From Nitrososphaerota archaeon (GTDB taxonomy: Archaea > Thermoproteota > Nitrososphaeria > Nitrososphaerales > JACPRH01): a stretch of 64,000 nt of DNA. Every line of letters starts with the position of its first letter. Position 1 is the first letter of the stretch. This document shows, in pieces, positions 18,867-53,630 of this stretch. A model generated the notes under the pieces. It was given only the letters and a program-made list of their open reading frames with translations. It was not told the origin of the DNA and did not search any database. The translations under genes and the position numbers were made by a program. The stretch covers positions 83,977-147,976 of the forward strand of contig JAMCPI010000017.1 in assembly GCA_023379805.1 (NCBI GenBank). The letters are read 5' to 3'.

Positions 18867-18901
18867 AAGATCTAACCGGGCTCCTACCCATGTTTTACCC
18901 G

Positions 18902-21119: not shown

Positions 21120-22286
21120 TTAGCTCTTCCCGTATTTTTTGAACAGCAGCACACCTGCGATTAGCACGAGCACGCTTACTATGGATACGATTGCTAAGTC
21201 TGTCAGTATTGCAGGGCTTGTTACGGGTGCGCCGCGGAGGAATAGGGACGTTAACGCGTCAGTTACGTAGCGGCTGGGAACGAATTTGCTTACGTCCTGC
21301 ATGCTTCCTGATACAGGCATGAAGCTTCCCAGCATCATCTGCGGCATTATGAAGAGGAATGCTATGCCTGTTGCGGCGCCGGAGGACTTCGATACCGTGG
21401 CCGTGATTAAACCGAAGCCTACGCAGCAGAGCGAGAACACCAAGACAATTACAAAGGCTAACGCGAAGCTGAGAGTATTCACCAGCGGCCTGTAACCTAC
21501 TGCGTAAGCTATCGAGAACACCAGCGCAACCTGCAGCAGAGCCAGAAGCATATTCGAGAATATGTGGCTGGCCATAAACTCTGACGCCGATGTAGGTGTC
21601 GTATTGATTCTCCTCAGCAGTCCTCTTTCACGGGCCACCGTGAATGCTTGAGCAACAATCATTGTAAGGAAGATTGCCGCGTAAGCGAATAGTCCCGGAG
21701 CCATATAGTCGAAGGTTGTGAATTTAGCTGCCTGAACCATTGAAGGGCTTCCGAGCTGGATTGGTCTCGCGGGGTTTGCTGTGGCCGCCGAGCTTCTGTA
21801 AACGGAGGCTGCTAACGCCTGCTGAATGACTGGCGGAACAGCCTGAGTGACAATCATTGAGCCGCTGTCCAGATATAGGGGCACAGTGGTTGTTTTCCAA
21901 GCGTTCGGATCTGCAGGTGACCTGTTGTATAGTTCCGAGCTGTATCCGAAGCCTTCTGGGATGATGAGTACAGCTAGGATTTTTCCTTGGACTAGATCAG
22001 CTTGAGCTGTTTCGTTGCTGCTGTAGGTTTGCATCTTCAGAATCTTGGTGGCGTTAAGGTTGGATGTGAAGGCTTGAAGCCATTGTCCGCTGTCTGTTGA
22101 CTCATCCAGGTTCACTACTCCGATCTGGAAGGTTGACTGCTGGTCTCCGCCGATGGCTCCGAAGGATATTCCGAAGAGGAGGGTGAGCATTACAGGAAAC
22201 AGTATTACTATGAAGAGTGTCGCAGGTTCTCTTAGAATTATTTTCGTGTTGACTTTGAGTAGAGCCGCTACTCTTTGGAGATTCAT
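21120..22286 (-). CDS. ABC-2 type transporter permease
   Basis: N-terminal TM, a large extracytoplasmic loop and a C-terminal 5-TM bundle. Adjacent to the ATPase. Confidence 0.8.
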   Translation of the reverse strand: MNLQRVAALLKVNTKIILREPATLFIVILFPVMLTLLFGISFGAIGGDQQSTFQIGVVNLDESTDSGQWLQAFTSNLNATKILKMQTYSSNETAQADLVQGKILAVLIIPEGFGYSSELYNRSPADPNAWKTTTVPLYLDSGSMIVTQAVPPVIQQALAASVYRSSAATANPARPIQLGSPSMVQAAKFTTFDYMAPGLFAYAAIFLTMIVAQAFTVARERGLLRRINTTPTSASEFMASHIFSNMLLALLQVALVFSIAYAVGYRPLVNTLSFALAFVIVLVFSLCCVGFGLITATVSKSSGAATGIAFLFIMPQMMLGSFMPVSGSMQDVSKFVPSRYVTDALTSLFLRGAPVTSPAILTDLAIVSIVSVLVLIAGVLLFKKYGKS

Positions 22287-22290
22287 CTGT

Positions 22291-23046
22291 CTAGGCTCCC
22301 TCCCTGATTTTTCTGCCTGTTAGCTGAATGAAGACCTCTTCCAGATCTTTGGCTGCGAACTTCTCTTTGAGCTCAGAGGGCGTGCCTAACGCGATGAGCT
22401 TGCCGTGGTCGATTATGCCGACGGTGTCGCACAGCATCTCAGCCTCCTCCATATAGTGGGTTGTCAGGATCACAGTCTTCTGCTGCTTCTTCAACTCGGT
22501 TATGAAGTCCCATACAGCGTGTCGGGATTGAGGATCCATCGCCACCGTAGGCTCGTCGAGAAAGGCTATCTGGGGGTTGTGAACAACCGCCATAGCTAGG
22601 CTGATTCGGCGCTTCATACCTTCACTGTACTTGCCTACCCGTCTCTTCGCATCAGCCTCTAACCCCATAATTCCAAGCAGATGATCAGTGCTCTTCCTCA
22701 ACTCCTCTTTTGATAAACCGTGAAGGTTGCCGAAGAGCTCCACATTCTCTCTACCGGTTAAACTTGGGTATATCGCAGGCTCTTGGGGACAAACACCGAT
22801 AAGCTCCTTCACTTTCCCACTGCTCTTCCAAACATCGTGGCCGCCTACACTGGCGGAGCCGGCTGTCGGCTCCAGCAGACCGCATAGAATATTGATCGTG
22901 GTGGTCTTCCCGGATCCGTTGGGGCCAAGTAGACCGAAGAGCTGGCCCTCCTTCACTTGGAGGCTCATCTCGTCAACTGCTGTGACATCGCCGAACTTCT
23001 TAACGAGCCGGTCGATCACTATCGAATTCTTCAATCTCGCACCCAA
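22291..23046 (-). CDS. ABC transporter ATP-binding protein
   Basis: Walker A GPNGSGKTT, signature YSEGMKRR, Walker B IAFLDEPT. Confidence 0.9.
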   Translation of the reverse strand: MGARLKNSIVIDRLVKKFGDVTAVDEMSLQVKEGQLFGLLGPNGSGKTTTINILCGLLEPTAGSASVGGHDVWKSSGKVKELIGVCPQEPAIYPSLTGRENVELFGNLHGLSKEELRKSTDHLLGIMGLEADAKRRVGKYSEGMKRRISLAMAVVHNPQIAFLDEPTVAMDPQSRHAVWDFITELKKQQKTVILTTHYMEEAEMLCDTVGIIDHGKLIALGTPSELKEKFAAKDLEEVFIQLTGRKIREGA

Positions 23047-23189: not shown

Positions 23190-24107
23190 TTACTTGGTGC
23201 TTCTTCCATGGGTCTGTTTGCCTTTCTCTATGAGGAGTTTGTCGCGCCAAGTGTCGTAAATGTAGCCTGTGAACGGGACGTTGAACATGTATGACGCGAC
23301 CGATTCTTCGCTGTGAATGTTTTGTAGTACCGCTTTTAAGTCCTTGAATGTGTTCGCCCAGACGAAGCCTAGTAGTAGGTTTGGAAGGTTGCTGAAGGAG
23401 AAGTAGAATAGGAAGTTTGGCCCATACTTCTGCATAAGTGATGCTCCTACCGAGTCCTTGTTAGCTGAGGGTTTGACTTTGAGGTGGGTCATTGCGAAGA
23501 TATCGTTGGAGGCGTCTGGGTACCACTCTATGGACAGCTCAATCAAGCCTTGATGCCGCATTTTCTCTAGTCGTCGATGAACGGTTTTGGCGGAGACGCC
23601 GAGTTCTTCAGCAACATCTGATGCAGCCTTCCTTGAATCCTTTCGCAGAGAACAGACTATCTGATAGTCCAACGGATGCAGAGCCTCATCTGCTTGAATA
23701 GGCGGCGCGTTGAATATCGCCACCACGGGATCCTCGATCTTCGCCTCATTTTTTACAAATGAGACGTGTTGATCAAGCTGCGAGATCTCCTTGATGCACG
23801 CGCCGATGTAAAGATAGTTTCCGCCCCCAAGTAACACCCAGTAGATTGAATCGTTTCTCCGTAGCTTCTCCTGAACACCGTCGATAGCTTCTAGGTTCGA
23901 CTTCCCGAAGACAAGCACCCTAACTCCGCCAAAAACAGCAGGGTTAATCTCGGCGGTGAACGCACGGATGATGCCGGCCTCAATCATCGCCTTAATCCGT
24001 TTGTGAACCGCGTTAATGGAAAGATCAAGCTTCTCAGCCAGCTCCCTGTAAGAGAGTCTTGAATTCATCATTAGAAGCTGGCAAAGCATGATGTCCTTTC
24101 TATCCAA
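23190..24107 (-). CDS. Tandem-domain Lrp/AsnC family transcriptional regulator
   Basis: Two HTH_AsnC-like modules: SYRELAEKLDLSINAVHKRIKAMIEAGII and ASDVAEELGVSAKTVHRRLEKMRHQGLI. Confidence 0.8.
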   Translation of the reverse strand: MDRKDIMLCQLLMMNSRLSYRELAEKLDLSINAVHKRIKAMIEAGIIRAFTAEINPAVFGGVRVLVFGKSNLEAIDGVQEKLRRNDSIYWVLLGGGNYLYIGACIKEISQLDQHVSFVKNEAKIEDPVVAIFNAPPIQADEALHPLDYQIVCSLRKDSRKAASDVAEELGVSAKTVHRRLEKMRHQGLIELSIEWYPDASNDIFAMTHLKVKPSANKDSVGASLMQKYGPNFLFYFSFSNLPNLLLGFVWANTFKDLKAVLQNIHSEESVASYMFNVPFTGYIYDTWRDKLLIEKGKQTHGRSTK

Positions 24108-24439: not shown

Positions 24440-24527
24440 TGGTGCGGGGGGTGGGATTTGAACCCACGAACCCCTAAGGGACAGGGTCCTAAGCCCTGCG
24501 CCTTTGGCCAGGCTTGGCAACCCCCGC
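24440..24527 (-). tRNA. tRNA-Leu (anticodon TAG), long variable arm, genomically encoded CCA
   Basis: The reverse complement reads GCGGGGG-TT-GCC..GGC-..CAGGG-CTTAGGA-CCCTG-variable arm(CCCTTAGGG)-GTGGG-TTCAAAT-CCCAC-CCCCCGC-A-CCA. Confidence 0.9.
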
Positions 24528-24672
24528 GCACGCCGTTGATGCTCTGCCCTTCTTCGTTATGATATGAAGCTTTCTTCGATTTTCTCTGCTGATGGTTTCG
24601 GCTAGAATCGTTGAATGGTTCATTGGTATCTTTGGCAAAAGAGTTTTATGTTTAGAATTCGCTAAACTGTTT

Positions 24673-25281
24673 ATGTCAACTCAAACTAGGGTGGTGTCCT
24701 ATCAGGCTAGGAGCTTTGATTATCTTTTAGGGGCTCCGGGCTTCAGTGATGAGATGTTGAAGAATCATTTCACTTTGTATCAGGGTTATGTTAAGAACAC
24801 TAACTCTCTCTCTGAGACTCTCATGAATATGGTGAAGGCGGGTAACATGGGTACGCCTGAGTTCTCTGAGCTGAAGAGGCGTTTCGGCTGGGAGTGGGAC
24901 GGGATGCGTCTTCACGAGTATTACTTCGAGGGGATGAGTCGTAGCGGCGCTGAGCTTGAGGATGATTCGTCTCTAGGCAACAAGATTGCTGAGGACTTTG
25001 GAAGCTATGAAAACTGGGAGAAGGACTTCAAGGCCACAGGTAAGATTCGAGGCGTCGGCTGGGTTGCTCTCTACTTCGATCCACGTACTGATCGACTCAT
25101 TAACGCTTGGATCAATGAGCATGACACCGGCCATTTAGCTGGCTGCAACCTCCTTCTCATCATGGATGTCTTCGAGCACGCCTTCATGCATGATTACGGG
25201 CTCAACCGCGCGAACTACATTGATGCCTTCTTCAAAACAATAGATTGGAACGTAGTTTTAGAACGCTTCCCCCGCGAGTAG
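24673..25281 (+). CDS. Fe/Mn superoxide dismutase family protein (divergent)
   Basis: C-terminal DVFEHAFMHDY (compare D-x-W-E-H-A-Y-Y) and LHEYYF mid-motif. I moved the start to the ATG at 24673 (MSTQTR..). Confidence 0.7.
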   Translation: MSTQTRVVSYQARSFDYLLGAPGFSDEMLKNHFTLYQGYVKNTNSLSETLMNMVKAGNMGTPEFSELKRRFGWEWDGMRLHEYYFEGMSRSGAELEDDSSLGNKIAEDFGSYENWEKDFKATGKIRGVGWVALYFDPRTDRLINAWINEHDTGHLAGCNLLLIMDVFEHAFMHDYGLNRANYIDAFFKTIDWNVVLERFPRE

Positions 25282-26394: not shown

Positions 26395-26955
26395 CTATTT
26401 CTCTGGTTGAGGTGTTATTGGGTGTCCGAGTTTTACTATCGAGATGTAGATGAGGTTCTGAGTTGAGTTGATATTGTTGTTGTCGTCGGTCATTTGGCCC
26501 TTCACCAGCATCATGATGTGTCCTTTTGCATGTTTGACTGTCGCGCCTTTCAGGTGAACGTCGTAATTGTTTCCATCAGCGTCCTGAACTTTTCCTTGGG
26601 CGTTGAAGCCGCGTTGGCTGACTGAACCGGTCCATGTGCCGTTTACTACCTTGTAGATTATTTTGGTGCCGTTATCCAAGATTACGATGCCTCCTTTTAC
26701 CGCCTCGATTCTGTGGGTACCGTTGGTCTTCGCTCCTTCTGCGTCAGTATCTTCTTCTCCTACCAGTCTTAGGTTGCTTCTGTGAGTCTCATTAGTGGCT
26801 TTGTCAGTCGCTATGCCTAATCCTAAGATGTTCAGACGGCGCTTTAGATCCGGGTTCTCAGACGCAGATGCTGAAAGCATTGGTGTCAGAGAAAGCGACA
26901 CTAACAGGACTGCTACTGCGGAGTAAGTGATTTTGCGTGTTATGGTCATACTCAT
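26395..26955 (-). CDS. Secreted hypothetical protein
   Basis: N-terminal signal-like helix (AVAVLLVSLSLTPMLSASA). No family motif. Confidence 0.45.
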   Translation of the reverse strand: MSMTITRKITYSAVAVLLVSLSLTPMLSASASENPDLKRRLNILGLGIATDKATNETHRSNLRLVGEEDTDAEGAKTNGTHRIEAVKGGIVILDNGTKIIYKVVNGTWTGSVSQRGFNAQGKVQDADGNNYDVHLKGATVKHAKGHIMMLVKGQMTDDNNNINSTQNLIYISIVKLGHPITPQPEK

Positions 26956-27167
26956 TTTTCCATCGTTATTCGGATATTGGTGAGGATAAGTAAGGAACTC
27001 GCCGGAACACCCTTACCATATATGTGGGAACGGTCGTTTCAAACTAGATATTTCAAGATTAATTGGTGGTGCGGGTGTCTGGTATTATTATCTGTGGATT
27101 GAGCTATATACGTTAATTATGTAGGTTGCTGATGAATACCTATATACTAAAGTTAGGTCATTAGGAA

Positions 27168-28358
27168 ATGGAGTATATGCAGAAGGGTAGCCGACAGGCA
27201 CTGCTGGCTGATGTTGCTGTCCGGCGGTGGTATGATCATATGGCTAAGAGTTCAGTGGTTACTACAGATGTATATCTTCGTAGGCTGGGGCATTTCTGCG
27301 AGCTCAACCGGACTACTCCTGGAAAGCTGGTTGCGATGCGCAGCAAGGATTTGGGTGACCTGCTTCTCAGTAATGTGGCTGAGCTTGAGGCGAAGCGTTA
27401 TGCTGGCAGCTATATTGAATCTACTTTGAAGGCGGTGAGGTCTTGGCTCGCATTCAACGGTGTCAAGGTTAAGACCAAGATTAAGGTGAAGGGGGCTCAG
27501 GCTACACCTTCTCTCAAGAATGAGCGGGTTCCGAGTAGAGACGAGCTTAGACGCATATTTCTTTCCGATAACAGAAAGTCGAGGGCTGCGGTTGCGCTTG
27601 TTGCACAGGCCGGGTTAAGGCTTGAGACGCTGGGCAACTACAAGGGTGATGATGGGCTAAAGATAGGTGATTTACCTGAGATGCGTATCGAGCGTGGAGT
27701 GGTTAGCTTCGCGAGGACTCCGACGCTGGTTGTTGTCCGGGATGAGCTCAGCAAGGGTCGGCATCAATACTTTACATTCCTTGCTGAAGAAGGCTGTGAA
27801 TACCTGAAGGATTACTTGGAGGAGCGGCTCAGAGGTGGGGAGATTCTCACAAAGGATTCTGCTATAATCACCCCCAAAGTTGCCAATAAGGAGTTTATTC
27901 GAACAATAAACATCGGCGATATGATTCGAGTCGCGGTTAGAAGCGCTGGTTTCCCTTGGAGACCGTATGTGCTGCGAGTATTCTTCGATACTCAGTTGAC
28001 AGCTGCTGAGAACAAGGGTCTGATGCCGCGTGAATACCACCGCTTCTTCATGGGTCATAAGGGTGAGATGGTGATCAAGTACTCGGCAAAAAAGCGCAGG
28101 CTTCCACGTGACACTGTTGAGGATATGCGGGGTGCTCTCGCTAAGGCTCAGAAGTATCTACAGACACGTAAACCTGAGGAGGAGATGGAGCAGGAGGTCA
28201 CCGTCAACATGAAGAGGCAGCTGTTGCTTGTTGGCGGGTACAGTAAGGAGGAGATTGAAGGGTTTAATCTGGAGCAGATGTCTGCTGAAGAGGTTCAGAC
28301 CAAAGTACGCGAAAAACTCTTAGCGATAATGCTGGCTGCAAAAACTGTCGTAAAATGA
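27168..28358 (+). mobile_element. Tyrosine recombinase / phage-type integrase
   Basis: N-terminal SAM-like domain. Catalytic-residue pattern: R in AQAGLRLETL, YVLRVFF (H/Y-x-x-R), FMGHKG (H) and MVIKYS (Y). Lies between two tRNA genes. Confidence 0.65.
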
Positions 28359-33391: not shown

Positions 33392-33436
33392 GTATACCTT
33401 CTTTGTCAGAGGCTCAAAACAAATTGGGCGACTTTC

Positions 33437-34042
33437 TCAGCTACCCAAAGGCAGTTTCCTGTTTAGCGAAGCATCAGGGTTAGTGTTCTTGACCATCGAT
33501 AGTACGAGATGGAGTCTCTTGCGGATAGTTGAATTAGGTGTATGGCTTCCTGTTATGAAGTATGATACGAGAATGATTACGCCTCCAATAATGGCGACGT
33601 AGGCGCCATGCCCGACATTGATGACCGAGGAGGCTTCTGCGGTTATCATCCCCCCAAGGCTGATTGTCTTTAATCCTTCTTTTGCAGCCGCTGACTTGAG
33701 CGAGTCAACGCCTAACATCCAGAAAGCTCCGCTAAAAATGCCTACTATACCTGCGAAGGGCGTTATCTTTCGCTTCACAATAGCAGCGACGCCTAGTATC
33801 AACGAGACCGGGTAGGTTATCAACGTCAAAGAAAGGCCGATTCCAGCCGTACCTTCTGTGAGGCTATTCGGAGTGATGCCGGCGGGTGGTTGTGTTCGAC
33901 CCGTTGAAGAGAGAATAAGCCGATATAGGTCTGCTAGAGAAATATTGAACTGATCTAGGAACGTTACAGTGAACCAAGGCATCATCGCTGCAAGGATAAG
34001 GATTGTAAGGCCAACTCCCGCAACAATCCGAAAGTAATCCAT
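33437..34042 (-). CDS. Hypothetical integral membrane protein
   Basis: About 5 hydrophobic helices. No family motif. Confidence 0.5.
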   Translation of the reverse strand: MDYFRIVAGVGLTILILAAMMPWFTVTFLDQFNISLADLYRLILSSTGRTQPPAGITPNSLTEGTAGIGLSLTLITYPVSLILGVAAIVKRKITPFAGIVGIFSGAFWMLGVDSLKSAAAKEGLKTISLGGMITAEASSVINVGHGAYVAIIGGVIILVSYFITGSHTPNSTIRKRLHLVLSMVKNTNPDASLNRKLPLGS

Positions 34043-34290
34043 CGCGTTCGTAACTCAAGGCGATATAATTTAAACATTCAGAGAATTTTACTTAATGACT
34101 CGGAATCGGTGACTGAAAACATGAGGACAACCGTTAAAATTATGGAGGAATTGAGAATAATATTACTTAATATATGATAATTATCAATAAGTGCTTCAAC
34201 ATAAGGACGTCGGCAGCGCGGATGGGCGGAGTTTAATCACAAACTAAACACCGATCAATCAAAATAGCGAAGCATCCCATCACGCCACGA

Positions 34291-34425
34291 TGGTGGGCCG
34301 GGGCGGATTTGAACCGTCGACCTTCGCTGTGTCAGAGCGATGTCCTAACCAGGCTGTCCGCATAGAGGCAGGACCTAAGGATAGGTGCCTTCCTTCTTTC
34401 TTTCTATGCTCTAGACGACCGGCCC
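34291..34425 (-). tRNA. tRNA-Val (anticodon GAC) interrupted by a ~57-nt intron in the D-loop; encoded CCA
   Basis: Reverse complement: GGGCCGG-TC-GTCTAG[57 nt]CCTGGTTAGGAC-A-TCGCT-CTGACAC-AGCGA-AGGTC-GACGG-TTCAAAT-CCGCC-CCGGCCC-A-CCA. The intron maps to about 34354-34410 and carries an internal GCATAGA/TCTATGC stem. Confidence 0.85.
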
Positions 34426-34493: not shown

Positions 34494-34898
34494 TTAGATT
34501 CCTAGGAGCGCATCAAGCGAGAACTCTCCGCCGCCTAAGAACGCAAGTGTTAGTGCACCAACTAAGTAGGCTAGGTCGAGCTCGTAGCCCCTTAGATACT
34601 TTAGATGCAGTCGCTGCTTTGACACCACCGTGGTAACAATCATCATGACCGCCATCACCATCCCCACCAGCTGTGTCAGAAACCCAGCTATGAGAGCAGC
34701 TCCCCCGACAACCTGTACTACCCCTGTCAATACTGTAGCCGTCGGAGGCATGCCGATATCCTTCAACGTCTTCATCTTGCTCTCAGCCGTTTCTCCGAAC
34801 ACCTTCAGGCGACCATGTGCGATGAACGCGACTCCCAGCGCGATGCGAAGCATTAACGGCGCCCAAGGTGCGAGGCTGCCGAGGATGTTGGAGAGCAT
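34494..34898 (-). CDS. DoxX family membrane protein
   Basis: Four TM helices and LRIALGVAFIAHG..K, as in DoxX. Confidence 0.75.
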   Translation of the reverse strand: MLSNILGSLAPWAPLMLRIALGVAFIAHGRLKVFGETAESKMKTLKDIGMPPTATVLTGVVQVVGGAALIAGFLTQLVGMVMAVMMIVTTVVSKQRLHLKYLRGYELDLAYLVGALTLAFLGGGEFSLDALLGI

Positions 34899-36349: not shown

Positions 36350-36579
36350 CCGGATCTCTGTTTGTTTAATTTGATTAGGCTTCTAGTAGTGAGACTCAAC
36401 TCTGCTTGGATGATTGTAGGCTAGTTTGACTGTCTCAGTCGTGTTGTTTTTGGCAAGGGCGTAGCGGTGGCGATTGAAATCACACATCTTCAGAATAACA
36501 ATATTATCTATATAACTATATAATTAATATAAACATTACATTAATTACCGAAGCGGTAAGGCTACTCAAGCGATACAGT

Positions 36580-37350
36580 ATGAGTAGTCATTCATCTACA
36601 CCAGTAATACTGTCAATAGTCGCCATACTCATCGGAGCAGCGGCAATCGGAATGACCTTCACTACACCAGGCCCACGAGGCCCAACAGGCCCCACGGGAG
36701 CAGCCGGAGTAGCAGGTCCTCAAGGATTACAAGGCCCCAAAGGTGACCCCGGACCACAGGGACCAAAGGGAGATACCGGAGCGCAGGGACCTCAAGGGCC
36801 GCAGGGACCAGCAGGTCAAGTATCCGTTAACGGCGGTGGTGACATAAGCACTGCTGTTATCCAAAAGATAGCTAACGAGACTGTACAAAAGGTGCTCTCC
36901 AAGGAGCTCGCATTCCCAATAGATGCTTCAATAGCACCTAGGAGAGGTTGCCCAGCATGCCACGACTTAATCAACAAAACAACAGGAAAATACACGTTGG
37001 CATACGAGGCACGTGAACGCGTAGCCGCGAGAGGACGAACACATCCAGCCTTCACTAACCCTACGGATAACCCGAATGTCACAGAGTGCTTAACATGTCA
37101 CGCAGCCGGCACTGGTGACCGCGAAGGAAAGGGTGCTGTCGCTCCACTAAGCCTCAGAGACATCGTGCACCCAGCGCACATGGGTAGCCAGGCATTCAAG
37201 ATACACTATGGTGGAAGCTGCTTCACCTGCCACGACGTAAACTCAAAGGGTGAATTCACACTCCTAACTCAGAAGGTTGATACCAATGAGAAGGGTGTGC
37301 CTAACCCAGACAAGCTACCGATACCTGGCGAGAAACCAATCGGACCATAA
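36580..37350 (+). CDS. Membrane-anchored collagen-like repeat protein with three CXXCH heme-c binding motifs
   Basis: TM helix at aa 8-27. 16 uninterrupted Gly-X-Y triplets (36670-36813). CPACH at 36949-36963, CLTCH at 37087-37101 and CFTCH at 37219-37233. Very AT-rich upstream region and a hairpin plus T-run downstream. Confidence 0.75.
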
Positions 37351-37372: not shown

Positions 37373-37408
37373 CCCCCAAACGAGATGATTGTTTGGGGGC
37401 TTCTTTTT
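37373..37408 (+). terminator. Stem-loop plus T-run after the cytochrome gene
   Basis: CCCCCAAAC-N9-GTTTGGGGG followed by CTTCTTTTT, 23 nt after the stop codon. Confidence 0.5.
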
Positions 37409-37503
37409 GCCTTGTTTTAGTTTAGTTTAAACCTACGCAGGGATTTCTTATCGTCGTATTTTTTGTTGCTTGCTTCTTTCCGGGTTTATCTTGGGTTCTA
37501 TGG

Positions 37504-38454
37504 TTACTCTACTACTAGGTAGAGTTTCTCTGTTGAAGGGCCTGTTGTAATTGAAAGTATGTGGACTCCCGGTTCTGTATCGTTGCTTATTTCTAGGGTT
37601 AGGGTTACTGTTTCGGATTTAGGTTCTTCGAGTTCGAGGCTTGGTGGGTTGAAGGTGCCTATCACTCCTTTAGGCAGCGAGAGGAGTCTGGGAATGATTG
37701 TTTGGGTCGGTGCGCCTACGGGTTTAAGCGTGACTTTGATGTCTCTGGAAGTTCCTCTTGGAAGGCTGATCCAGTATCCAACTGCCTTCCCCTCCTCCTT
37801 AACTTCACCCATAAACTCCGGATCCACCTCGTAACCAATCTTCACTGCGGGTGTTGGTTGCGCTTCAGCTCCCGCTGCTGCTGTTGCTGTCGTTGTTGCG
37901 GCTAACTGGTTTGCCGAAGCGAGGTTTCTTCTGGTCACCACTATTGCCGCTATGATGATCGCTATCACAGCGACTCCTACTGTAGTGTAGGCGATCTCTG
38001 TAGGTAATGCTACCTTGACCGCTGATGTTAGGGTAGTTGTTTGAGCTGGTTGTGTAGAGGTGACGGTGGTTGCTGATGTAGTTGTGGCTGTGACTGTTTG
38101 AGTGGTTGCGGCAGTTGTTGTTGAAAGGGTTGTTGAGCTTACTGTAGATGTCGCTGTAGTAGTTACGGTTGTCGTACTGACTGTTGACGAAGTTGTTAAG
38201 CTAGTCTGTGACGACGTAGTTATTGTCTTCGTTGCTGTCGTTGATGATGCGGATGATGGTGGGGGCGTGGTGGTTGTGGTTGAAGTGAATGTGGTTGTAG
38301 CGGTTTCGGTTGTTGTGCTGGTTATTGTTGCGATTGGTCCGGCACCGGGCATTCTGGATTCGTATGTCTGTGGAGAGATGTAGGTGAAGACGAGTATCAG
38401 CGCGATGGCTAGGGCGAATCCTCCTAGTGCTGCTGGTACGAGTCTCATCTTCAT
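37504..38454 (-). CDS. Thr/Ser-rich two-TM surface protein with a C-terminal beta-rich domain
   Basis: I moved the start to the ATG at 38454 (MKMRLVPAALGGFALA..). About 100 aa of T/S low complexity is followed by TSTQPAQTTT..LPTEIAY plus a TM and RR, then a 135-aa domain. Confidence 0.6.
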   Translation of the reverse strand: MKMRLVPAALGGFALAIALILVFTYISPQTYESRMPGAGPIATITSTTTETATTTFTSTTTTTPPPSSASSTTATKTITTSSQTSLTTSSTVSTTTVTTTATSTVSSTTLSTTTAATTQTVTATTTSATTVTSTQPAQTTTLTSAVKVALPTEIAYTTVGVAVIAIIIAAIVVTRRNLASANQLAATTTATAAAGAEAQPTPAVKIGYEVDPEFMGEVKEEGKAVGYWISLPRGTSRDIKVTLKPVGAPTQTIIPRLLSLPKGVIGTFNPPSLELEEPKSETVTLTLEISNDTEPGVHILSITTGPSTEKLYLVVE

Positions 38455-38489
38455 TTTGCTACATGCTCGCTTGTTTGTTTGTCTCTTAA

Positions 38490-39641
38490 TTAGGTTACTG
38501 TCTGCTGCTTCGACTCCTTCCTTCCCAGTGAGACCTTCCGGTACGCTACGTATCCTACTCCTAGCAGGATCCATATGGGGAACAGTCCTACTGTGAGGAA
38601 GATTATGCCGGTGGCCTCGAATGTTAATGCTGATGCTGCGAGGATAAGTGAGTCCTGAAGCGCCGCTGTGAAAGGATTCTGCAGAGGCTTCTCTTCCGTT
38701 GTCTCCTCTTTGAACTGTAATGGTTCTTTCAAGCTGAGGGTTATAGTGGCGTAGCTGACCTGCTTCTGCAGGTTTTGGATCTGCGCCTTCAAGACTTCTA
38801 TGCGTTCCTGAGTATTGTCTATCTTCATCTGTATGTTGAGTATATCCTCGATTCTGCTCGCCTTCGTAAGTATATCGTTGTATTGGTTCAAGACGTTCTG
38901 CGCATTCTTCAGCCTTGCTTCGAGGTCAACTGCTTGATCGGTAACGTCTTGGGTGCTAAGTGAGTAGAAGTCTACCTTCCCGAGCTTCATAACCTGTGCC
39001 TGAGCCTCCCCGTAACGGTTAGCTGGGATTAACACGGTGATTGTTGCTGTGAACCCCTGCTCCTTAACTTCCTTCCCCATTATGTAGATGCCTTTGGGGA
39101 TAGGTTGAAGATCAGTTCTACCTATGTAGCCGCCTTGACTTGCCGCTATCTGTTGAATCTGGGGAAGCGTAAGCTGTACACTGGTAACATTTAGTCCAAT
39201 GTTCGCCGTGTATATTACGAGTCTGTCAGGTAGCATCGAAGGACCACTTTGAGCGACATTTAGTCCCTGCGGGCCTGCAGGTTGGTTTATCGATGAAGCC
39301 TGGGTGGTGGTTGACATCGTCATTGTTCTAGTGGCCATGGTGGTGGTCACAGTTGTCGCGGTGGTATATGGTGCGCCGCCGAAATCAGGTCTGCTGCTTG
39401 TGACGGTCGCGGTCATCGTTTGTGCAGGGGGGCCAACAGCGCTGGGCATCTGTTTGGCTTCGACATATTGTGTGCCTCCTTCTCGGCTGCTGGACAGTAG
39501 ACTCGAGCTTTTCTGCGACTCTATTGCTGCTCCTGTTACGCCTGCTGCTACCAGTATTATTAACGGGATGAGGATTTTCGCCCTTCGTCTCAAGGCTTGT
39601 CCATTTACCCGGATATTTCTTCTAATCATATCCATCCACAT
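38490..39641 (-). CDS. DUF4349 domain membrane protein
   Basis: N-terminal TM, a Thr-rich stretch, a coiled-coil block (LEARLKNAQNVLNQYNDILTKA..IEDILNIQMKIDNTQERIEVLKAQIQNLQKQVSYATITLSL) and C-terminal TMs, as in DUF4349. Confidence 0.65.
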   Translation of the reverse strand: MWMDMIRRNIRVNGQALRRRAKILIPLIILVAAGVTGAAIESQKSSSLLSSSREGGTQYVEAKQMPSAVGPPAQTMTATVTSSRPDFGGAPYTTATTVTTTMATRTMTMSTTTQASSINQPAGPQGLNVAQSGPSMLPDRLVIYTANIGLNVTSVQLTLPQIQQIAASQGGYIGRTDLQPIPKGIYIMGKEVKEQGFTATITVLIPANRYGEAQAQVMKLGKVDFYSLSTQDVTDQAVDLEARLKNAQNVLNQYNDILTKASRIEDILNIQMKIDNTQERIEVLKAQIQNLQKQVSYATITLSLKEPLQFKEETTEEKPLQNPFTAALQDSLILAASALTFEATGIIFLTVGLFPIWILLGVGYVAYRKVSLGRKESKQQTVT

Positions 39642-45260: not shown

Positions 45261-47510
45261 CTATTTCTTTCTCATTACTAGTACTGCTGCGCCTACGATA
45301 GCTATTACTGCTATACCGACTGCCGCATAGGTGACTTCTGATGGTAGACCTGTTGTCTGTGTTACTTGTGAGGTTACTGTTGTGGTCTGGGTTTTAGCTG
45401 GTTGTGTTGATGTAACTGTTGTTGCTGTTGTTGCGGTTGTGGTTGCGGTTGCAGTGGTGGTGGATACACTTGTAGTGGCGGATGTGGTGGTAGCTGTTGT
45501 GGTTGTGGTAGTTGTTGCTGTGGTTGTAGCAGTAGTTGTAGCTGTGGTTGTTGTTATTGCTGTTGTAGTTATCGTGGTGGCTTTAGCCGCCTTGCCGGAC
45601 AGTCCTAGTGCGACTACGCTTCCAGGTGTGTTGCTGAGGCGAGTTCCTACCATTGTGAAGATCTTCATGTTTCCGTCGGAGTCTGCACCGATTGTTGGTC
45701 CGACTGTGATTGCTGAGCCGAGGTTCTTCTCGAACAGTGCTTTACCTGTGTCTGAGTCTAGTGCTCTGAAGTAGCCGTCTGTGAAGCCTGACATGACTAG
45801 TCCTGGAGTTACTATCATGTGTGCGCGTTGCTGTCCTATGCTGTAGAAGTAGGTCCATTTGGTGTTGCCGGTTGTTGCGTCTCTGGCCACGATGGTGGTG
45901 TTGAAGACTGGGTATGCCTTTGTCATGAAGAGGTTTCCTCCTTGTACGTATGGGAGCTCTCGTGTTAGAGTGAACTGCAGTGCTACTGCGTAGTGGAACA
46001 ATGTGTTTGTCTGTGGGTCATAACTCATATCCGTGCCGAAGATGCCGTTACCGAAGTACGGGTATACAATGCATGGAATAGTGCAGTATTTGCCTGGTTC
46101 ACCTGGAGCTTTTGCGGGGTAGCTGATCCAACCCCACTCCCTCATGTCGTATTGGCTGAATGGATCTGGTCGGAAGTACTTGATACCATCTGGAATAACC
46201 TTTAGTACCGAGGCACCGATTTGTCCAGTCTTTACTTGATCCTCCACGGTATCTTTAGTCCACAAGGGCTTACCTGTCTTAGCATCCATTGCATACAGAA
46301 TGCCTTCCTTGCATCCCTTCATGTAGACTTTACCTAGACCCTTGACATCAGCTAATACTCCGCTCCAGTTGCAGTCGTAGTCGTAGGGGTCATGCGGGAA
46401 GGGTTGTAGCCACCAGACTCTCTTTCCAGCATTCATGTCTATCGCCATGATTGTGGAGCCGTAGAGTCTTGGTCCGGGTGTCTGTGATAGGTTTGAGTAC
46501 GGTCCTTGGTTACCTGTTTGTGTGTAGACTATTCCTGTGTCTTCATCTACGACCATCTGTCCCCAGTTAGCTGTGACACCAGCCCATTTAGTGGGTGCCT
46601 GTCCTGGTTGAGCCCAGTCCCATTCAAGTCCTGCGAGGTTCTTGGCTTTTACTTCACTGCATGGGAAGGTTTGGAAGAAACCTATGTCGCACTCCTGTAG
46701 AGCCCAGTCTTTGGTGTGTTGATCTTGTGGTGGGAAGCTGTATACTCTCCATATGATGTTATATGGTGCATCCATGTTGATGCCCATTGTAACGTGTCTT
46801 GAGTCTGGTCCCACTAGGGTGCTGTGCATGCTACCGGGTAGAACATAGATGAACATGTGTCCTTTCTCGTAGGTTCCAATTTGGTTCATTGCGGGTAGGT
46901 TGTAGTTTGATCCGTACTTGTAGAGATTGCCTGGTACGTTCTTGCATAGGTCTTGTATTTGGAACTTGTCTTTACCTGTCTTGGCGTCTACTGCGTACAT
47001 ATCGCAGGCTGAGCCGAAGTCAAGTATTGCATCTCCACCCTCCCAGTATCGGATGCCGTGGTAGTGGCTTATGCTAGATATCACTACAGGCAGTCTATCT
47101 CTGGCTGCTGTGATATTGATTACGTAGTCATGTGTCCATTTCTGGGCGCCGGTCTTAGCGTCAATGGCGTAAAGGCGCTTGTAGTTGGTCATGATGTAGA
47201 CAACGCCGTTTCTCACGATTGGAGGAGTGCTGGAGCCTTCACCTAGGGTAACTGCTTGTAGCGCAGTTGGCGCTAGGGATTTGCTTCCAATTGGGAAGAT
47301 CCACTTTACCTCCAGATCGCCTACGTTATCCTTGTTGATCTGGGTCTGCGGGCTATAGTTTTGTGCCCACGAGTTGCCGTTTGTGTTCTGCCAATCCTTA
47401 CCGTTATCTGCTAGGGGTGCTGCGTACGCGAATGTTGTTGCGAATGTGCTGAACGCGAGAACGGCTAGTACAGTTAGTACAGTAACTCTGTGAGAGTTTA
47501 GATACTTCAT
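45261..47510 (-). CDS. PQQ-dependent dehydrogenase (methanol/ethanol family) with signal peptide, Thr-rich stalk and C-terminal TM anchor
   Basis: DWQNTNGNSWAQNYSPQTQINKDNVGDLEVKW..STPPIVRNGVVYIMT..LYAIDAKTGAQKW, repeated AxDxxTGK propeller motifs and PHDPYDYD. I moved the start to the ATG at 47510 (MKYLNSHR.., signal ..AYAAP). Confidence 0.85.
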   Translation of the reverse strand: MKYLNSHRVTVLTVLAVLAFSTFATTFAYAAPLADNGKDWQNTNGNSWAQNYSPQTQINKDNVGDLEVKWIFPIGSKSLAPTALQAVTLGEGSSTPPIVRNGVVYIMTNYKRLYAIDAKTGAQKWTHDYVINITAARDRLPVVISSISHYHGIRYWEGGDAILDFGSACDMYAVDAKTGKDKFQIQDLCKNVPGNLYKYGSNYNLPAMNQIGTYEKGHMFIYVLPGSMHSTLVGPDSRHVTMGINMDAPYNIIWRVYSFPPQDQHTKDWALQECDIGFFQTFPCSEVKAKNLAGLEWDWAQPGQAPTKWAGVTANWGQMVVDEDTGIVYTQTGNQGPYSNLSQTPGPRLYGSTIMAIDMNAGKRVWWLQPFPHDPYDYDCNWSGVLADVKGLGKVYMKGCKEGILYAMDAKTGKPLWTKDTVEDQVKTGQIGASVLKVIPDGIKYFRPDPFSQYDMREWGWISYPAKAPGEPGKYCTIPCIVYPYFGNGIFGTDMSYDPQTNTLFHYAVALQFTLTRELPYVQGGNLFMTKAYPVFNTTIVARDATTGNTKWTYFYSIGQQRAHMIVTPGLVMSGFTDGYFRALDSDTGKALFEKNLGSAITVGPTIGADSDGNMKIFTMVGTRLSNTPGSVVALGLSGKAAKATTITTTAITTTTATTTATTTATTTTTTTATTTSATTSVSTTTATATTTATTATTVTSTQPAKTQTTTVTSQVTQTTGLPSEVTYAAVGIAVIAIVGAAVLVMRKK

Positions 47511-47844
47511 ATACTTCAAGAGAGCCGCGTAGCTGCATGAGATATAAGCCTTACGCAAAAAAACGTAAATAAAATATATGCTTTGAGCCGAATCTATAAT
47601 CTTAGTATAAACTACGGTCAAAATAATATACTTGTATAAACCTAAATTTAATAAAAACGATACTGTAAAACCAGAGATCTGGACGAAAAAAGTAACTGAG
47701 CAATGAGAAAAAAAGAAAGTTGGATATGTCTGATCAGTTAGGCTGTTTTCATCACTATTACTGCTGTTTCACGCGGCGTTTCGAGGCGGATAGCATAAAT
47801 GCGCCTGAGTCAGGAGGTTAGCCATTCTTGGATCTGGTGTTTAG

Positions 47845-50696: not shown

Positions 50697-51263
50697 TTAT
50701 TTTTTCCCTGTTTTACTTTGTCTTTCCAGCTTGTCTAGTCTCTTTTCTATCTGTTTAATCACGGTTTGCAGGTGGGTTCGTCCATGTTTGAGTGTGCGTA
50801 TTTGTTCGTCAACAGGTTTGTCTTCTAGGCTTTTTCCGAATGGGAGAAGTGCAAACGGTTTAGGTGATGGGGGGAGTTTAGTCTCCAGCATGTCGTGGGC
50901 GAATTCGCGGAACAAGTTACTGATAGCCTCTGCCATCTGCTGCTGCTTTTTCAGCGCGACCTCTAAGAGCTGCTTGCCCTCATCAGTTATTTCGTAGTTC
51001 TTCTTTTTGCGTTTGCCTTCGCTTCTCCACTTGCCTTTGATGTACCTGTTCTCTTCCAGTTCTTTGAGTATGGGGTAGACTCCTCCGGCTGTTAATGTCC
51101 AGACGCCTAGGGTTTCTTCCTTGATCTTTTTCATGATATCGTAGCCTGTTAAAGGCTTCTTGCTGAGAAGTGTAAGTATCACAAGCTTGGTGTAGCCTTT
51201 ACGCATAGCCGTCTCCCACATCTCAGCTATCTGCTCTGCTCTACCACCACCGCTACTACTCAT
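50697..51263 (-). CDS. PadR family transcriptional regulator
   Basis: LVILTLLSKKPLTGYDIMKKIKEETLGVWTLTAGGVYPILKELEENRYI..Y.ITDEGKQ. Divergent from the ABC operon. Confidence 0.8.
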   Translation of the reverse strand: MSSSGGGRAEQIAEMWETAMRKGYTKLVILTLLSKKPLTGYDIMKKIKEETLGVWTLTAGGVYPILKELEENRYIKGKWRSEGKRKKKNYEITDEGKQLLEVALKKQQQMAEAISNLFREFAHDMLETKLPPSPKPFALLPFGKSLEDKPVDEQIRTLKHGRTHLQTVIKQIEKRLDKLERQSKTGKK

Positions 51264-51414
51264 CCGTTCAAAGCACCTCCGAGTAGTCTGTGCTGGAAGA
51301 AGGCGGGAAGCCGGCGTTCATTGAGTCCCGCTCAGGGGAGCGGTATATTTAAATGCTATATATTTCGCCGCTACATATGGCGGAGAAGAAGCGTTGACCG
51401 CTGAAAGTAACGCG

Positions 51415-52422
51415 ATGATTGAGGTCAGAAATCTCACAAAGAAGTTTAACGATTTCACCGCTGTCAACGACGTCTCTTTTGATGTTAAGCACGGTGAGAT
51501 ATTCGGTTTACTCGGCCCCAACGGGGCGGGGAAATCCACGACAATTAGGATGCTCGCCACATTGACGAGACCTACTGCAGGCACCATCAAAATCGGCGGT
51601 CACGACATCGTAAAGGATGACGACCGGGTAAGGAACCTAGTGGGCTTAGTCTCCGAAAAGATGATTCTTTACGAGCGGTTAACCGCTAAAGAGAATCTCT
51701 GGTTCTTCGGAAAACTCTACAATATTCCAAGAGACACCCTAAACAAAAGGATTGATGAGCTGCTGGAGATGGTTCAGCTCAGCCAGTGGAAAAACGCTAA
51801 GGCCGGCACCTTCTCAACAGGTATGCGGCAGCGGATGAATGTTATACGGGCGCTGCTTAACATGCCGCAGGTACTTTTCCTTGATGAGCCTACGTTAGGC
51901 CTAGATCCTCAGTCATCAGTCGAGATAAGGGAGTTCGTGAGAAAGATTAGTAAGGAGAGCAAGACCACGATAATTCTAACCACACATATGATGGTTGACG
52001 CCGATATGCTCTGTGACCGAATAGGCATAATGGATCACGGAAAGATCGTTGCGCTTGACACATCGAAGAATTTGAAGAAGATTGTTTCAGGAACAGATCA
52101 TAACATCTTGAATCTGGATGTCGCAAACCTAAACACTAGGGCTGTTGCATCGATTCGGTCTCTCAAATGCGTCACACAGGTTTCTCAGGAGAGCTCTACT
52201 CGCCTCAAACTCCACATTACCGGGGAGGAAGCGTTTGATACGATAATAGATACTTTGAGGGCTCAGAAATGCAGGATAAACTCGGTGGAGCATCTCGAAC
52301 CTACGCTTGAAGATGTGTTTCTTCACATAACCGGTCGCGATGTTAGAGATAAGGCGGATCAGAAGCCTTCTATGGAGTCTGGTCACCGTCACTTCATGAT
52401 GCCGAGGAGCAGAGTTAGGTAA
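51415..52422 (+). CDS. ABC transporter ATP-binding protein (ABC-2/DrrA-like)
   Basis: Walker A GPNGAGKST, signature FSTGMRQR, Walker B VLFLDEPT. I chose the ATG at 51415 (MIEVRNL); the track offers TTG at 51394. Confidence 0.9.
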   Translation: MIEVRNLTKKFNDFTAVNDVSFDVKHGEIFGLLGPNGAGKSTTIRMLATLTRPTAGTIKIGGHDIVKDDDRVRNLVGLVSEKMILYERLTAKENLWFFGKLYNIPRDTLNKRIDELLEMVQLSQWKNAKAGTFSTGMRQRMNVIRALLNMPQVLFLDEPTLGLDPQSSVEIREFVRKISKESKTTIILTTHMMVDADMLCDRIGIMDHGKIVALDTSKNLKKIVSGTDHNILNLDVANLNTRAVASIRSLKCVTQVSQESSTRLKLHITGEEAFDTIIDTLRAQKCRINSVEHLEPTLEDVFLHITGRDVRDKADQKPSMESGHRHFMMPRSRVR

Positions 52423-52433
52423 GTGAGTAATTG

Positions 52434-53630
52434 ATGAGTGTTAAGAGTTTACTGACACACAGCTTCATGGTTGCTTGGAAGGATCTGATGGAGCTTTTCA
52501 GGAACAAGATGGGGTTAGCTGTGCTTGTGGTGATGCCGATATTCATGATGGGCATGGTCGGATTCATATTTCCTTCCAGCAGCTCCATGGGTCACGTCAA
52601 CATCGGCTTAGCGAATGAGGATCAAGGATACGGCGGCTACCTGAACGCTGGTTCAGCGCTCGCCACCGGTTTGGAGGAGATAAACAACAGCACAGGCAAG
52701 ATGACCATCACTCATGCTTCAAGCCTCAGCGAGGTGCAGGACATGATTCAGCGAGGCACGATTGACGGCGGCGTAGTTATTCCGCGCAACTTCAGTTCAA
52801 GCATTGCAAGCGGGAAGCAGGGAACAATCATAGTTGTAACTGATGAAACTAATCCTCAGATGTCATCTGTTATGCGAACCTCTATGACGACCCTGTTCCA
52901 GCAGATAGGTACGCAGGTGGCGCGGCAGAACGTTGAGTGGCTGAGTCCATCGGTTAACGCCAGCAACTCTCTTGCAGTGGTCGCGCCTTACAATGTTCAG
53001 GCGGAGGGGGCTGTTGCGGGGAGTTTCAACTACTTCGATTTCATGGCGCCGGGGTTAATGGCCATGACAGTGATGATGAGCGTTATGACCGGGCTCCCAG
53101 CAGCCATTTCGCATGAACGGGAGGTCGGGACACTAGACGGAATGATGGTAGCCCCGATCAATAGGCTCGCAGTAGTACTTGGAAAAACGCTAGCTCAAAC
53201 AGCTAGAGGGCTGCTTCAAGGAACACTGATACTCGCATTGTCAATAGCTCTTTTCGGCGTAACCATACACGGGAGTCTACTGCTAATCTTTGCGTTGCTG
53301 CTGCTCGGCGTATTCAGCTTCGTAGGCATAGGCATCGTGTTAACCTCCTTCACAAAGGATCAGGAAACAGCCACGATGGTGATGACGACAATTATGTTCC
53401 CAATGATGTTCCTAAGCGGCGTATTCTTCCCAATACAGCAAATGCCTTGGTACATGCAGAACATATCCCGTATGCTTCCATTAACCTACGCAGCCACCGC
53501 TCTAAGAAAAGTAATGGTGTTCGGAGCCGGAGTCCCAACGATAACCACCGAGCTAACCATACTAATTGGGCTCGGCGTCATCATGACAATAATCGCAGTA
53601 CCCGTCTTCAAAAGAGCTATGACGCGGTAA
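52434..53630 (+). CDS. ABC-2 type transporter permease
   Basis: Same architecture as 21120-22286: TM, large loop, 5 TM. Confidence 0.85.
   Translation: MSVKSLLTHSFMVAWKDLMELFRNKMGLAVLVVMPIFMMGMVGFIFPSSSSMGHVNIGLANEDQGYGGYLNAGSALATGLEEINNSTGKMTITHASSLSEVQDMIQRGTIDGGVVIPRNFSSSIASGKQGTIIVVTDETNPQMSSVMRTSMTTLFQQIGTQVARQNVEWLSPSVNASNSLAVVAPYNVQAEGAVAGSFNYFDFMAPGLMAMTVMMSVMTGLPAAISHEREVGTLDGMMVAPINRLAVVLGKTLAQTARGLLQGTLILALSIALFGVTIHGSLLLIFALLLLGVFSFVGIGIVLTSFTKDQETATMVMTTIMFPMMFLSGVFFPIQQMPWYMQNISRMLPLTYAATALRKVMVFGAGVPTITTELTILIGLGVIMTIIAVPVFKRAMTR

Follow-up and report, generated by a model that had tools for sequence, protein, structure and literature searches.

A predicted collagen-stalked triheme cytochrome c of a Nitrososphaerota archaeon and its homologues beside bacterial quinol-oxidising complexes

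Introduction

The locus described here raises the question of what a protein with a collagen-like stalk and three heme-attachment motifs may do in an archaeon of a group for which no such protein has been on record. The gene is located at positions 36580-37350 (+) of a 64-kb stretch of DNA from a Nitrososphaerota archaeon (contig JAMCPI010000017.1), the whole of which is referred to below as the window. Thaumarchaeota were reported to be without c-type cytochromes (PMC4429474; PMC7300363), neither cytochrome c nor the maturation system Ccm being present (PMC4429474), and the acceptor of the pyrroloquinoline quinone (PQQ) dehydrogenases of heterotrophic Thaumarchaeota was given as unknown, no cytochrome c having been found (PMC7300363). 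From the analysis presented here, the family of the window protein is a real, conserved and undescribed form of tethered cytochrome. With moderate confidence, we read the protein as a tethered electron relay of the cell envelope, namely a membrane-anchored extracytoplasmic triheme cytochrome c carried on a collagen-like rod.

Architecture of the protein

The open reading frame (ORF; 36580-37350, +) opens at the first start codon past an in-frame upstream stop and encodes 256 aa plus the stop. An initial annotation of the window had described one N-terminal transmembrane (TM) helix, a stalk of Gly-X-Y (GXY) triplets and a triheme c-type module, and this anatomy was confirmed. The anchor (aa 9-27, 36604-36660, +) was the sole strongly hydrophobic stretch, with a Kyte-Doolittle 19-residue mean of 2.53 and values of at most 0.6 elsewhere. 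As not a single charged residue lies ahead of this helix, the orientation of the protein was deduced from its relatives: the bacterial homologues have lipoprotein signal peptides, and the TM anchor occupies the place of their lipobox. The collagen-like tract (aa 31-81, 36670-36822, +) begins three residues past the helix and consists of 16 uninterrupted triplets (aa 31-78, 36670-36813), exactly as quoted before, with GQV as a 17th triplet in register. It is followed by a Gly-rich hinge, SVNGGGD (aa 82-88, 36823-36843, +), which is specific to the thaumarchaeal clade and longer in some relatives. A conserved amphipathic segment that is predicted to be helical (aa 89-110, 36844-36909, +) then lies between stalk and heme domain, and it could possibly act as a trimerising neck.

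The heme domain forms the C-terminal 135 aa of the protein (triheme domain with a conserved C-terminal motif, aa 121-256, 36940-37347, +). Its three heme-attachment motifs are CPACH (aa 124-128, 36949-36963, +), preceded by an invariant R122-G123, CLTCH (aa 170-174, 37087-37101, +) and CFTCH (aa 214-218, 37219-37233, +), and no other gene of the 64-kb window carried CXXCH when all ORFs of at least 60 aa in six frames were inspected. The Cys and His residues of these motifs, whose conservation among orthologs had been a point on which the initial annotation turned, were invariant in an alignment of 96 sequences. Three further His residues were likewise invariant in the 96 homologues: His155 (37042-37044, +), a candidate distal heme ligand, and His197 and His200 of the motif DIVHPAHM (37168-37179, +), candidate distal ligands of two hemes. 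Of the spare His residues earlier thought suited to bis-His ligation, these three are conserved, and they would be enough for three bis-His hemes. The window protein, which forms the first row of the alignment (A2), carries all four family motifs, LPIPG among them. From these motifs we infer that it binds heme.

The heme domain has no family in Pfam or NCBIfam. For the window protein, all of the curated cytochrome families of Pfam stayed below cut-off, namely PF22113 (MtrC/MtrF domains II-IV, 22.0 vs 30 bits), PF14522 (Cytochrome_C7, 20.8 vs 24.8), PF09699 (Paired_CXXCH_1, 19.1 vs 20.6) and PF02085 (class III, 16.1 vs 22.9). No Cytochrom_C or Cytochrome_CBB3 match was obtained at E<=0.01, the best Cytochrome_CBB3 value being E=2.6. 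PF22113 was the most consistent weak match, and two divergent members of the family, P0125 and P0146, passed it at 33-34 bits. Sequence and profile searches against PDB chains returned only collagen and marginal motif matches to NapB, cytochrome c3 and MtrC; the best profile match to PDB sequences had E=0.014, and MtrC was found at E of at least 0.02. A Foldseek search of the PDB with a model of the full protein gave nothing below E=3.7.

Collagen-like tract

With 34.9 bits (E=1.3e-8), the tract of the window protein passed the Pfam family Collagen (PF01391), for which the cut-off is 27.2 bits. Pro occupies the X position ten times and the Y position once, and two KGD motifs are present, which bears out the earlier remark on Lys/Asp pairs of the kind that stabilise triple helices. 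Its closest solved sequences in the search of PDB chains were animal collagens and BclA, and the best matches over NCBIfam and PDB together were Scl1, Lcl, Scl2, BclA and animal collagens. The DNA of the tract is not a simple tandem repeat, since Tandem Repeats Finder detected three short 9-bp arrays only (scores 35-42). Chance does not account for either the GXY tract or the CXXCH motifs. A phage tail-fibre collagen was also considered and was ruled out by the conserved C-terminal cytochrome domain together with the lack of phage genes nearby.

The same segment was followed through the family. The segment from anchor to heme domain held 5-19 uninterrupted GXY triplets in 78 of the 105 full-length members; for the 70 members of lipobox type the number was 64. 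The median triplet number was 9 in the lipoproteins and 14.5 in the TM forms. A single residue past the lipidated Cys, the tract is already under way in 46 of the 61 lipoproteins, and the median distance from tract end to first heme motif is 31 residues. Over 776 triplets, Pro fills the X position in 68%, and Ala (41%), Gln (22%) and Pro (12.5%) occur at Y. Lys or Arg at Y followed by Asp or Glu at the next X was observed 13 times against 1.1 expected, and the reverse order did not occur at all. Peptide work has established that interchain salt bridges formed by the K-G-D/E arrangement make triple helices more stable. When the window protein was compared with an ortholog that is 86% identical, all 17 Gly residues of the tract were kept and its length was equal, with only 16 of 32 X and Y residues being identical; if Gly changed as often as X and Y, this would have a probability of about 8e-6. 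The uninterrupted GXY register, as the initial annotation had led us to look at in orthologs, is therefore conserved. Taken together, these features argue for a collagen-type structural constraint rather than a loose linker. With the helical rise of 0.286 nm per residue that is standard for a triple helix, the window protein would have a rod of about 14 nm, compared with about 8 nm for a typical member from bacteria. Single-chain AlphaFold2 modelled the tract as extended (predicted local distance difference test, pLDDT, 56-74).

Distribution and selection of the family

With aa 80-256 as the query, at least 228 homologues of 140-270 aa were found. All 120 that were inspected kept three CXXCH motifs, 119 of them having exactly three. 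An exhaustive profile search of 1.84 billion representatives yielded just 119 clusters (50% identity) at E<=1e-3, of which 78 reached E<=1e-10. This is a small, compact family. The recurrence of GXY plus three CXXCH motifs in related archaea that had been envisaged was indeed found, in sequences of Thaumarchaeota type and Bathyarchaeia type and above all in Chloroflexota. The architecture is not unique to archaea, and an archaeal origin for it was not supported. The N-terminus is a lipoprotein signal in bacterial members and a TM helix in archaeal ones.

A scan with one genome per species gave 46 loci, all from metagenome-assembled genomes (MAGs) and none from an isolate. Most belonged to Anaerolineales or other Chloroflexota; the remainder included 2 Thaumarchaeota, 3 Bathyarchaeia, 1 Bacteroidota and 1 Acidobacteriota, both Thaumarchaeota loci coming from the same groundwater MAG (JACPRH01 contigs). 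When metagenomes were scanned with the protein at full length, generic collagen-like genes dominated the result: only 7 of the 80 loci were family members, and none of these seven was thaumarchaeal.

The window is syntenic with JACPRH010000034, a contig of this Thaumarchaeota-labelled groundwater MAG, at about 80% nucleotide identity over 13 kb, and the 86%-identical ortholog stands there in the syntenic position; the same ortholog occurs on four contigs, and a protein identical to that of the window (P0001) on two other public contigs. The gene is not a binning artefact, since it is accompanied by archaeal markers: the window encodes eIF-2 alpha and HMG-CoA reductase, and related loci encode Alba and a Vps4/CdvC-like ATPase. 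Its thaumarchaeal neighbours are exclusively housekeeping genes, namely those of HMG-CoA reductase, DUF4349, a Vps4/CdvC-like ATPase, tRNA synthetases, PhoU and geranylgeranyl reductase, and offered no hint of its function.

Between the window gene and its ortholog, dN/dS was 0.21 over the whole gene, with values of 0.18 for the heme domain and 0.26 for the GXY tract, which denotes purifying selection. This selection, together with two retained paralogs, argues that the protein would be functional in its archaeal host. In the anchor-coding part (36580-36666), dS was low, at 0.14 (3 changes over 23 sites) against 0.43-1.25 in the rest of the gene, a difference that could reflect noise or else some constraint acting on the 5′ end of the mRNA.

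In a rough neighbour-joining tree the thaumarchaeal sequences formed one clade, within which paralogs devoid of GXY were nested among the stalked sequences, and the related MAG was found to hold both kinds. Such nesting suggests that the stalk may have been lost following duplication. The GXY-less paralog (of 'MNRQLT...' type, 67% identical) was seen at L011:9869-10504 (contig JACPRH010000028 of the related MAG) and also in L009 and L059, always between phoU and a geranylgeranyl-reductase-like gene. Archaeal and Chloroflexota proteins share 55-68% identity, and this degree of similarity across domains of life implies horizontal transfer between archaea and bacteria, in one direction or the other.

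Some divergent members carry other segments in front of the heme domain. P0071, P0150, P0165 and P0184 have an N-terminal SLH domain (PF00395, 45-56 bits) in place of GXY, and these SLH-fused members would sit in the cell wall of bacteria that have no outer membrane. Others swap GXY for linkers rich in Pro, Ala and Glu, and still others contain some 100 residues that resemble the Ig-like Big_7 family only weakly (20-21 bits, below the cut-off of 24.1).

Gene neighbourhoods of the bacterial homologues

ORFs were called in all homologue loci and clustered, and representatives were annotated with Pfam. In 12 Chloroflexota loci the gene was found 16-562 nt upstream of ActA on the same strand, the distance being 69-85 nt in 7 of them. 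The operon that follows is that of Alternative Complex III, with the pentaheme ActA, the molybdopterin-type ActB and its Fe-S part, the NrfD-type ActC, ActD and c-type cytochromes. In one further locus the gene is the last of an Alternative Complex III operon, and in other loci it faces or precedes an operon for Rieske protein, cytochrome b and a multiheme cytochrome. Eighteen bacterial loci had flanks of 3 kb or more on either side of the gene, and 11 of these contained Alternative Complex III or Rieske/cytochrome b. The common theme is an extracytoplasmic triheme module held off or above the membrane and genetically coupled to quinol-oxidising complexes. The homologues also draw attention to an accessory gene that lacks an annotation in the Anaerolineales operons for Alternative Complex III and Rieske/cytochrome b.

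Just upstream, 12 of the same 18 loci encode a HisKA_3 kinase together with a GerE-type regulator and a small protein that resembles a receiver. Two CXXCH motifs are present in the extracytoplasmic sensor region of the kinase (L026:6970-8484, with equivalents in 24 loci), where weak Tll0287-like and Mcp40H-20 matches were also obtained. The kinase, which is followed by the GerE-type regulator and by the receiver-like ORF of about 113 aa, may be a c-heme redox sensor that controls the operons.

Several other heme proteins were noted in the same surroundings. In Anaerolineales, many copies encode a fusion protein of about 445 aa with five hemes, made up of lipobox, GXY tract, triheme domain and a C-terminal class-I diheme domain; the diheme part contains WRCKECHGWDY and CSACHGEDGR and matches Cytochrome_CBB3 at 39 bits (L015:9764-11107, L012:9818-11131, L026:9764-11110 and others), and in L012 and L025 fused and unfused copies are adjacent. 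Two more cytochrome families of the same Chloroflexota loci have a lipobox and 12-13 GXY triplets, one with 8 hemes in about 420 aa and one with 6 hemes in about 363 aa (L026:429-1691 and 18598-19689; also in L027, L052, L020 and L067), with Pfam Collagen scores of 26.6 and 28.8 bits. By hhalign neither of these two stalked families showed homology to the triheme domain. In the fetched family loci, all genuine ORFs with at least five GXY triplets were cytochromes. A heterotrimer of the three GXY-stalked families was considered and is disfavoured, since their tract lengths differ (9-10 vs 13 triplets).

Proposed function and alternatives

Because the homologous genes lie beside Alternative Complex III and Rieske/cytochrome b, the protein would be a dedicated redox partner of quinol-oxidising membrane complexes, a role that is read from the homologues. 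In the relay that we favour, the N-terminal anchors would fix three chains in the membrane and the three GXY tracts would wind into a collagen triple-helix rod, by which a trimeric head with three bis-His hemes per chain could be held at a set height in the gap that separates the membrane from the S-layer or cell wall. With some freedom of movement given by the hinge SVNGGGD, the head would pass electrons between quinol-oxidising complexes, contacted at their extracytoplasmic heme domains, and more distant partners. These outer partners might be other redox proteins, stalked or wall-bound, or else a terminal acceptor, and the flow could run in either direction. Trimerisation, the resulting nine hemes, the partners and the direction of flow are the parts of the model that we infer.

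Several points weigh against this relay. AlphaFold2 was too uncertain to be used, with a pLDDT of 68 for the full protein and 55 for the heme domain alone. Sixteen triplets that contain no hydroxyproline would be of marginal stability as a free peptide. As some members lack GXY or have only 5-7 triplets, trimerisation cannot be essential to the heme domain. A rigid rod of 14 nm would lie beyond the tunnelling distance of membrane complexes, so that tilting or intermediate carriers would be needed; the unstalked paralog could serve as such a carrier. No Alternative Complex III, Rieske/cytochrome b, oxidase or second cytochrome was found in the 64-kb window, nor was a respiratory partner, a second cytochrome or a maturation gene found in any thaumarchaeal locus examined, and the adjacency of the gene to a complex of complex III type that was seen in bacterial loci is absent from the window and from every thaumarchaeal locus. 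As for cytochrome c maturation, neither a Ccm or Ccs gene (Pfam, about 50 window ORFs) nor a WWD motif (scan of all fetched loci) was detected, a result that covers the window and the fetched loci and says nothing of the remaining genome. Given the reported lack of c-type cytochromes in Thaumarchaeota, heme attachment in this particular host is putative.

A monomeric tethered shuttle is a possible though distinctly less probable explanation. Here GXY would be a flexible Pro-rich leash, comparable to the Ala/Pro linker of cytochrome c_y, no triple helix would form, and a single triheme domain would swing within one membrane from the quinol-oxidising complex to a terminal oxidase and back. The range of tract length, from 0 to 19 triplets, and the replacement of GXY by Pro/Ala/Glu-rich linkers in other members are consistent with a leash; the association with operons of complex III type, the fusions to class-I cytochrome c, which are typical of aerobic chains, and the Fe/Mn superoxide dismutase encoded in the window also fit it. 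A plain leash needs, however, neither the enrichment of K-G-D/E nor a gathering score for Pfam Collagen, and the strict Gly period, in which every Gly was kept while half of X and Y changed, speaks against it as well. The SLH variants anchored in the wall, moreover, cannot shuttle in the plane of the membrane.

The initial annotation had called the protein an extracellular electron-transfer device. This turned out to be one of several readings, and a tentative one, since the firmest context was provided by the Alternative Complex III and Rieske/cytochrome b operons of bacteria. It overlaps the relay model: the stalked trimer would form the outermost part of a conduit by which cells that lack an outer membrane could send respiratory electrons across their envelope to acceptors that are insoluble or extracellular, or draw electrons from donors of that kind. 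L026, L027, L052 and L067 pair the gene with NapC/NirT-type and 6-, 7- and 8-heme cytochromes, two of which are GXY-stalked, and the SLH-anchored variants put the domain in the cell wall. The best cytochrome match in Pfam, although weak, was to MtrC/MtrF domains II/IV, which the two divergent members mentioned above pass. For the window protein itself this similarity is nevertheless below cut-off (22 vs 30 bits), no mineral-respiration marker was present in the window, where the archaeal gene stands alone, and there is no cultured host. The class-I cytochrome c fusions and the Alternative Complex III context are, in addition, equally typical of ordinary aerobic chains.

We also considered a broader and rather unlikely scheme, in which collagen rods of defined length would be used as redox spacers by trimeric cytochromes of at least three unrelated multiheme families in Chloroflexota, Thaumarchaeota and Bathyarchaeia, prokaryotes that have no outer membrane, and would, with the SLH-bearing and unstalked paralogs, form a stepped electron path leading across the envelope from the quinol-oxidising complexes. 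The window protein would in that case also be the first functional thaumarchaeal c-type cytochrome and the missing acceptor of PQQ dehydrogenases.

That the protein is by itself the dedicated acceptor of the stalked PQQ dehydrogenases of heterotrophic Thaumarchaeota, much as cytochrome cL or c550 is for bacterial quinoproteins, seems improbable. An anchored PQQ dehydrogenase lies 8 kb away, as had been stated (45261-47621, -; PF01011, E=5e-41; likely start 47510). Its sequence comprises a signal peptide, some 90 residues rich in Thr and Ala and a C-terminal TM anchor, with no CXXCH, and an acceptor for enzymes of this kind is missing from the published account (PMC7300363). The proposed link found no support, however: no adjacency was conserved in any locus, the two genes share no operon and are separated by five ORFs, located on both strands, PQQ dehydrogenases did not recur close to family members over more than 50 loci, and the family is centred in Chloroflexota, in another context.

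It is very improbable that the gene was acquired horizontally and is not matured to a holo-cytochrome here, its product being inactive or repurposed, for although the identity of 55-68% with Chloroflexota, the reported lack of cytochrome c and Ccm in Thaumarchaeota (PMC4429474) and the failure to find a maturation gene in the window or fetched loci would agree with this, the heme domain is under purifying selection (dN/dS 0.18), the heme ligands are invariant across the thaumarchaeal clade including two retained paralogs, and the gene is present in several independent assemblies.

Comparison with known systems

The nearest functional likeness is to the membrane-anchored cytochromes c, such as Rhodobacter c_y, Paracoccus c552 and Bacillus c551/CccB, which share a TM or lipid anchor, a linker and an extracytoplasmic c-type domain. 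These proteins work with enzymes of complex III type, the tether replacing a soluble carrier, and the linkage of our homologues to Alternative Complex III and Rieske/cytochrome b fits this likeness. They are, however, monoheme class-I cytochromes on flexible, non-periodic linkers, whereas the window protein has three predicted bis-His hemes, an unrelated domain and a periodic GXY tract. ActA (pentaheme) and ActE (a monoheme lipoprotein) are encoded in the same Chloroflexota operons, and ActE is lipid-anchored too, but the triheme protein is not homologous to either of them, all falling into separate clusters at E<1e-10. To our knowledge, it is absent from the described structures of Alternative Complex III.

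Among the multiheme proteins that act further out, MtrC, MtrF and OmcA (PF22113) resemble the family in giving its best cytochrome match in Pfam and in being surface-exposed; they differ in having five hemes per domain and an outer-membrane porin partner, where the window protein has three motifs and no such partner. ANME-2 archaea and Methanoperedens possess very large multiheme cytochromes fused to S-layer domains, by which hemes are placed away from the membrane. The window protein, which was compared with them by description only, is instead a small triheme protein on a collagen-like rod. PgcA of Geobacter sulfurreducens is a triheme protein of lipoprotein type with Pro-rich repeats that takes part in electron transfer beyond the membrane (bioRxiv 10.1101/172775), a likeness of layout and not of sequence comparison. 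Its repeats are (Pro-Thr)n located between the heme motifs and gave no collagen-like circular dichroism signal (bioRxiv 10.1101/172775), whereas GXY of the window protein sits between anchor and domain.

On the side of the stalk, BclA of Bacillus anthracis, Scl1 and Scl2 of Streptococcus pyogenes and Lcl of Legionella likewise consist of an anchored GXY stalk with a globular head, and the number of triplets varies among relatives in BclA and in this family alike. Their heads are adhesins or C1q-like rather than heme proteins, and Scl has about 50-80 triplets compared with 16. In NCBIfam, the window protein stayed below the cut-offs of these adhesins (Scl1/SclA 42.1 vs 400, Scl2/SclB 33.0 vs 325, Lcl 34.5 vs 500), the GXY tract alone being matched. 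Tethered cytochromes c and bacterial collagen-like stalk proteins are thus each known, and their combination is undescribed in the literature searched: a full-text search found no collagen-like cytochrome, in agreement with the initial annotation, which had known of no described example.

If the relay model is true, it would add a new design principle, in which a rigid rod of tunable length positions hemes in the envelope of cells that have no periplasm. The phylum had been described as cytochrome c-free, and a c-type cytochrome gene that is conserved and under selection now stands there on contigs bearing clear archaeal markers. This reopens the question of extra-membrane electron carriers in non-ammonia-oxidising Thaumarchaeota, including carriers for the electrons from PQQ dehydrogenases. 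The protein, of about 26 kDa, is a small and defined target for expression and testing.

Gene flanks and other features of the window

The region upstream of the gene (36480-36560, +) contains several TATA-like runs and is a candidate archaeal promoter, with an A+T content of 76.5% against 50.7% across the window. The promoter scan of this region used a sigma-70 (bacterial) model, which is not valid for archaea. Downstream, a terminator-like element (37373-37409, +) was found that consists of a hairpin with an 11-bp stem (6 G-C pairs) and a 5-nt loop at 37373-37399, followed by CTTCTTTTTG as the T-rich tail. Both the AT-rich upstream region of its own and the hairpin with T-run that had been assigned to the gene were therefore recovered. 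As the downstream gene is convergent and the upstream gene ends 230 nt before, a monocistronic unit is plausible.

The convergent ORF (37504-38574, -) is Thr-rich and has a TM helix. As listed, it overlaps by 85 nt (38490-38574) with the next minus-strand ORF (38490-39641), and the real start of the downstream gene probably lies further in. With both this ORF and the PQQ dehydrogenase being Thr-rich, the usual tether of this archaeon appears to be a Thr-rich stalk, unlike the collagen-like one.

A few features elsewhere in the window were also recorded. At window position 33420-34291, about 4.7 kb that the related MAG possesses (L001:2979-7701, with CHRD, SGL-like beta-propeller and AbiEi_2 genes) are absent, which marks an indel in two genomes that are collinear apart from it. 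The only tRNA of the window, tRNA-Leu (24440-24527, -), lies 2.6 kb from a 396-aa ORF (27168-28358) with a weak match to XerA-type tyrosine recombinases (27 bits, far below cut-off), and an unannotated ORF of 186 aa is located between them (region 26395-28358); this stretch may be the remnant of an integrated element. The ORF at 23190-24107 was tried as a siroheme decarboxylase (AhbA/B) and rejected, its NCBIfam scores being 24-27 bits vs cut-offs of 125-140, and it was assigned to Lrp/AsnC-type regulators. Two modules of PadR and an ABC-2 transporter are encoded at 21120-23046 and 50697-53630. Directly after grpE-dnaK-dnaJ, a radical SAM/SPASM protein (13334-14467, +) matched TIGR04084 (AF0577) at 302 bits against a cut-off of 225. 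The Fe/Mn superoxide dismutase (24592-25281, +) and a DoxX-family membrane protein (34494-34898, -) are consistent with exposure to oxygen.

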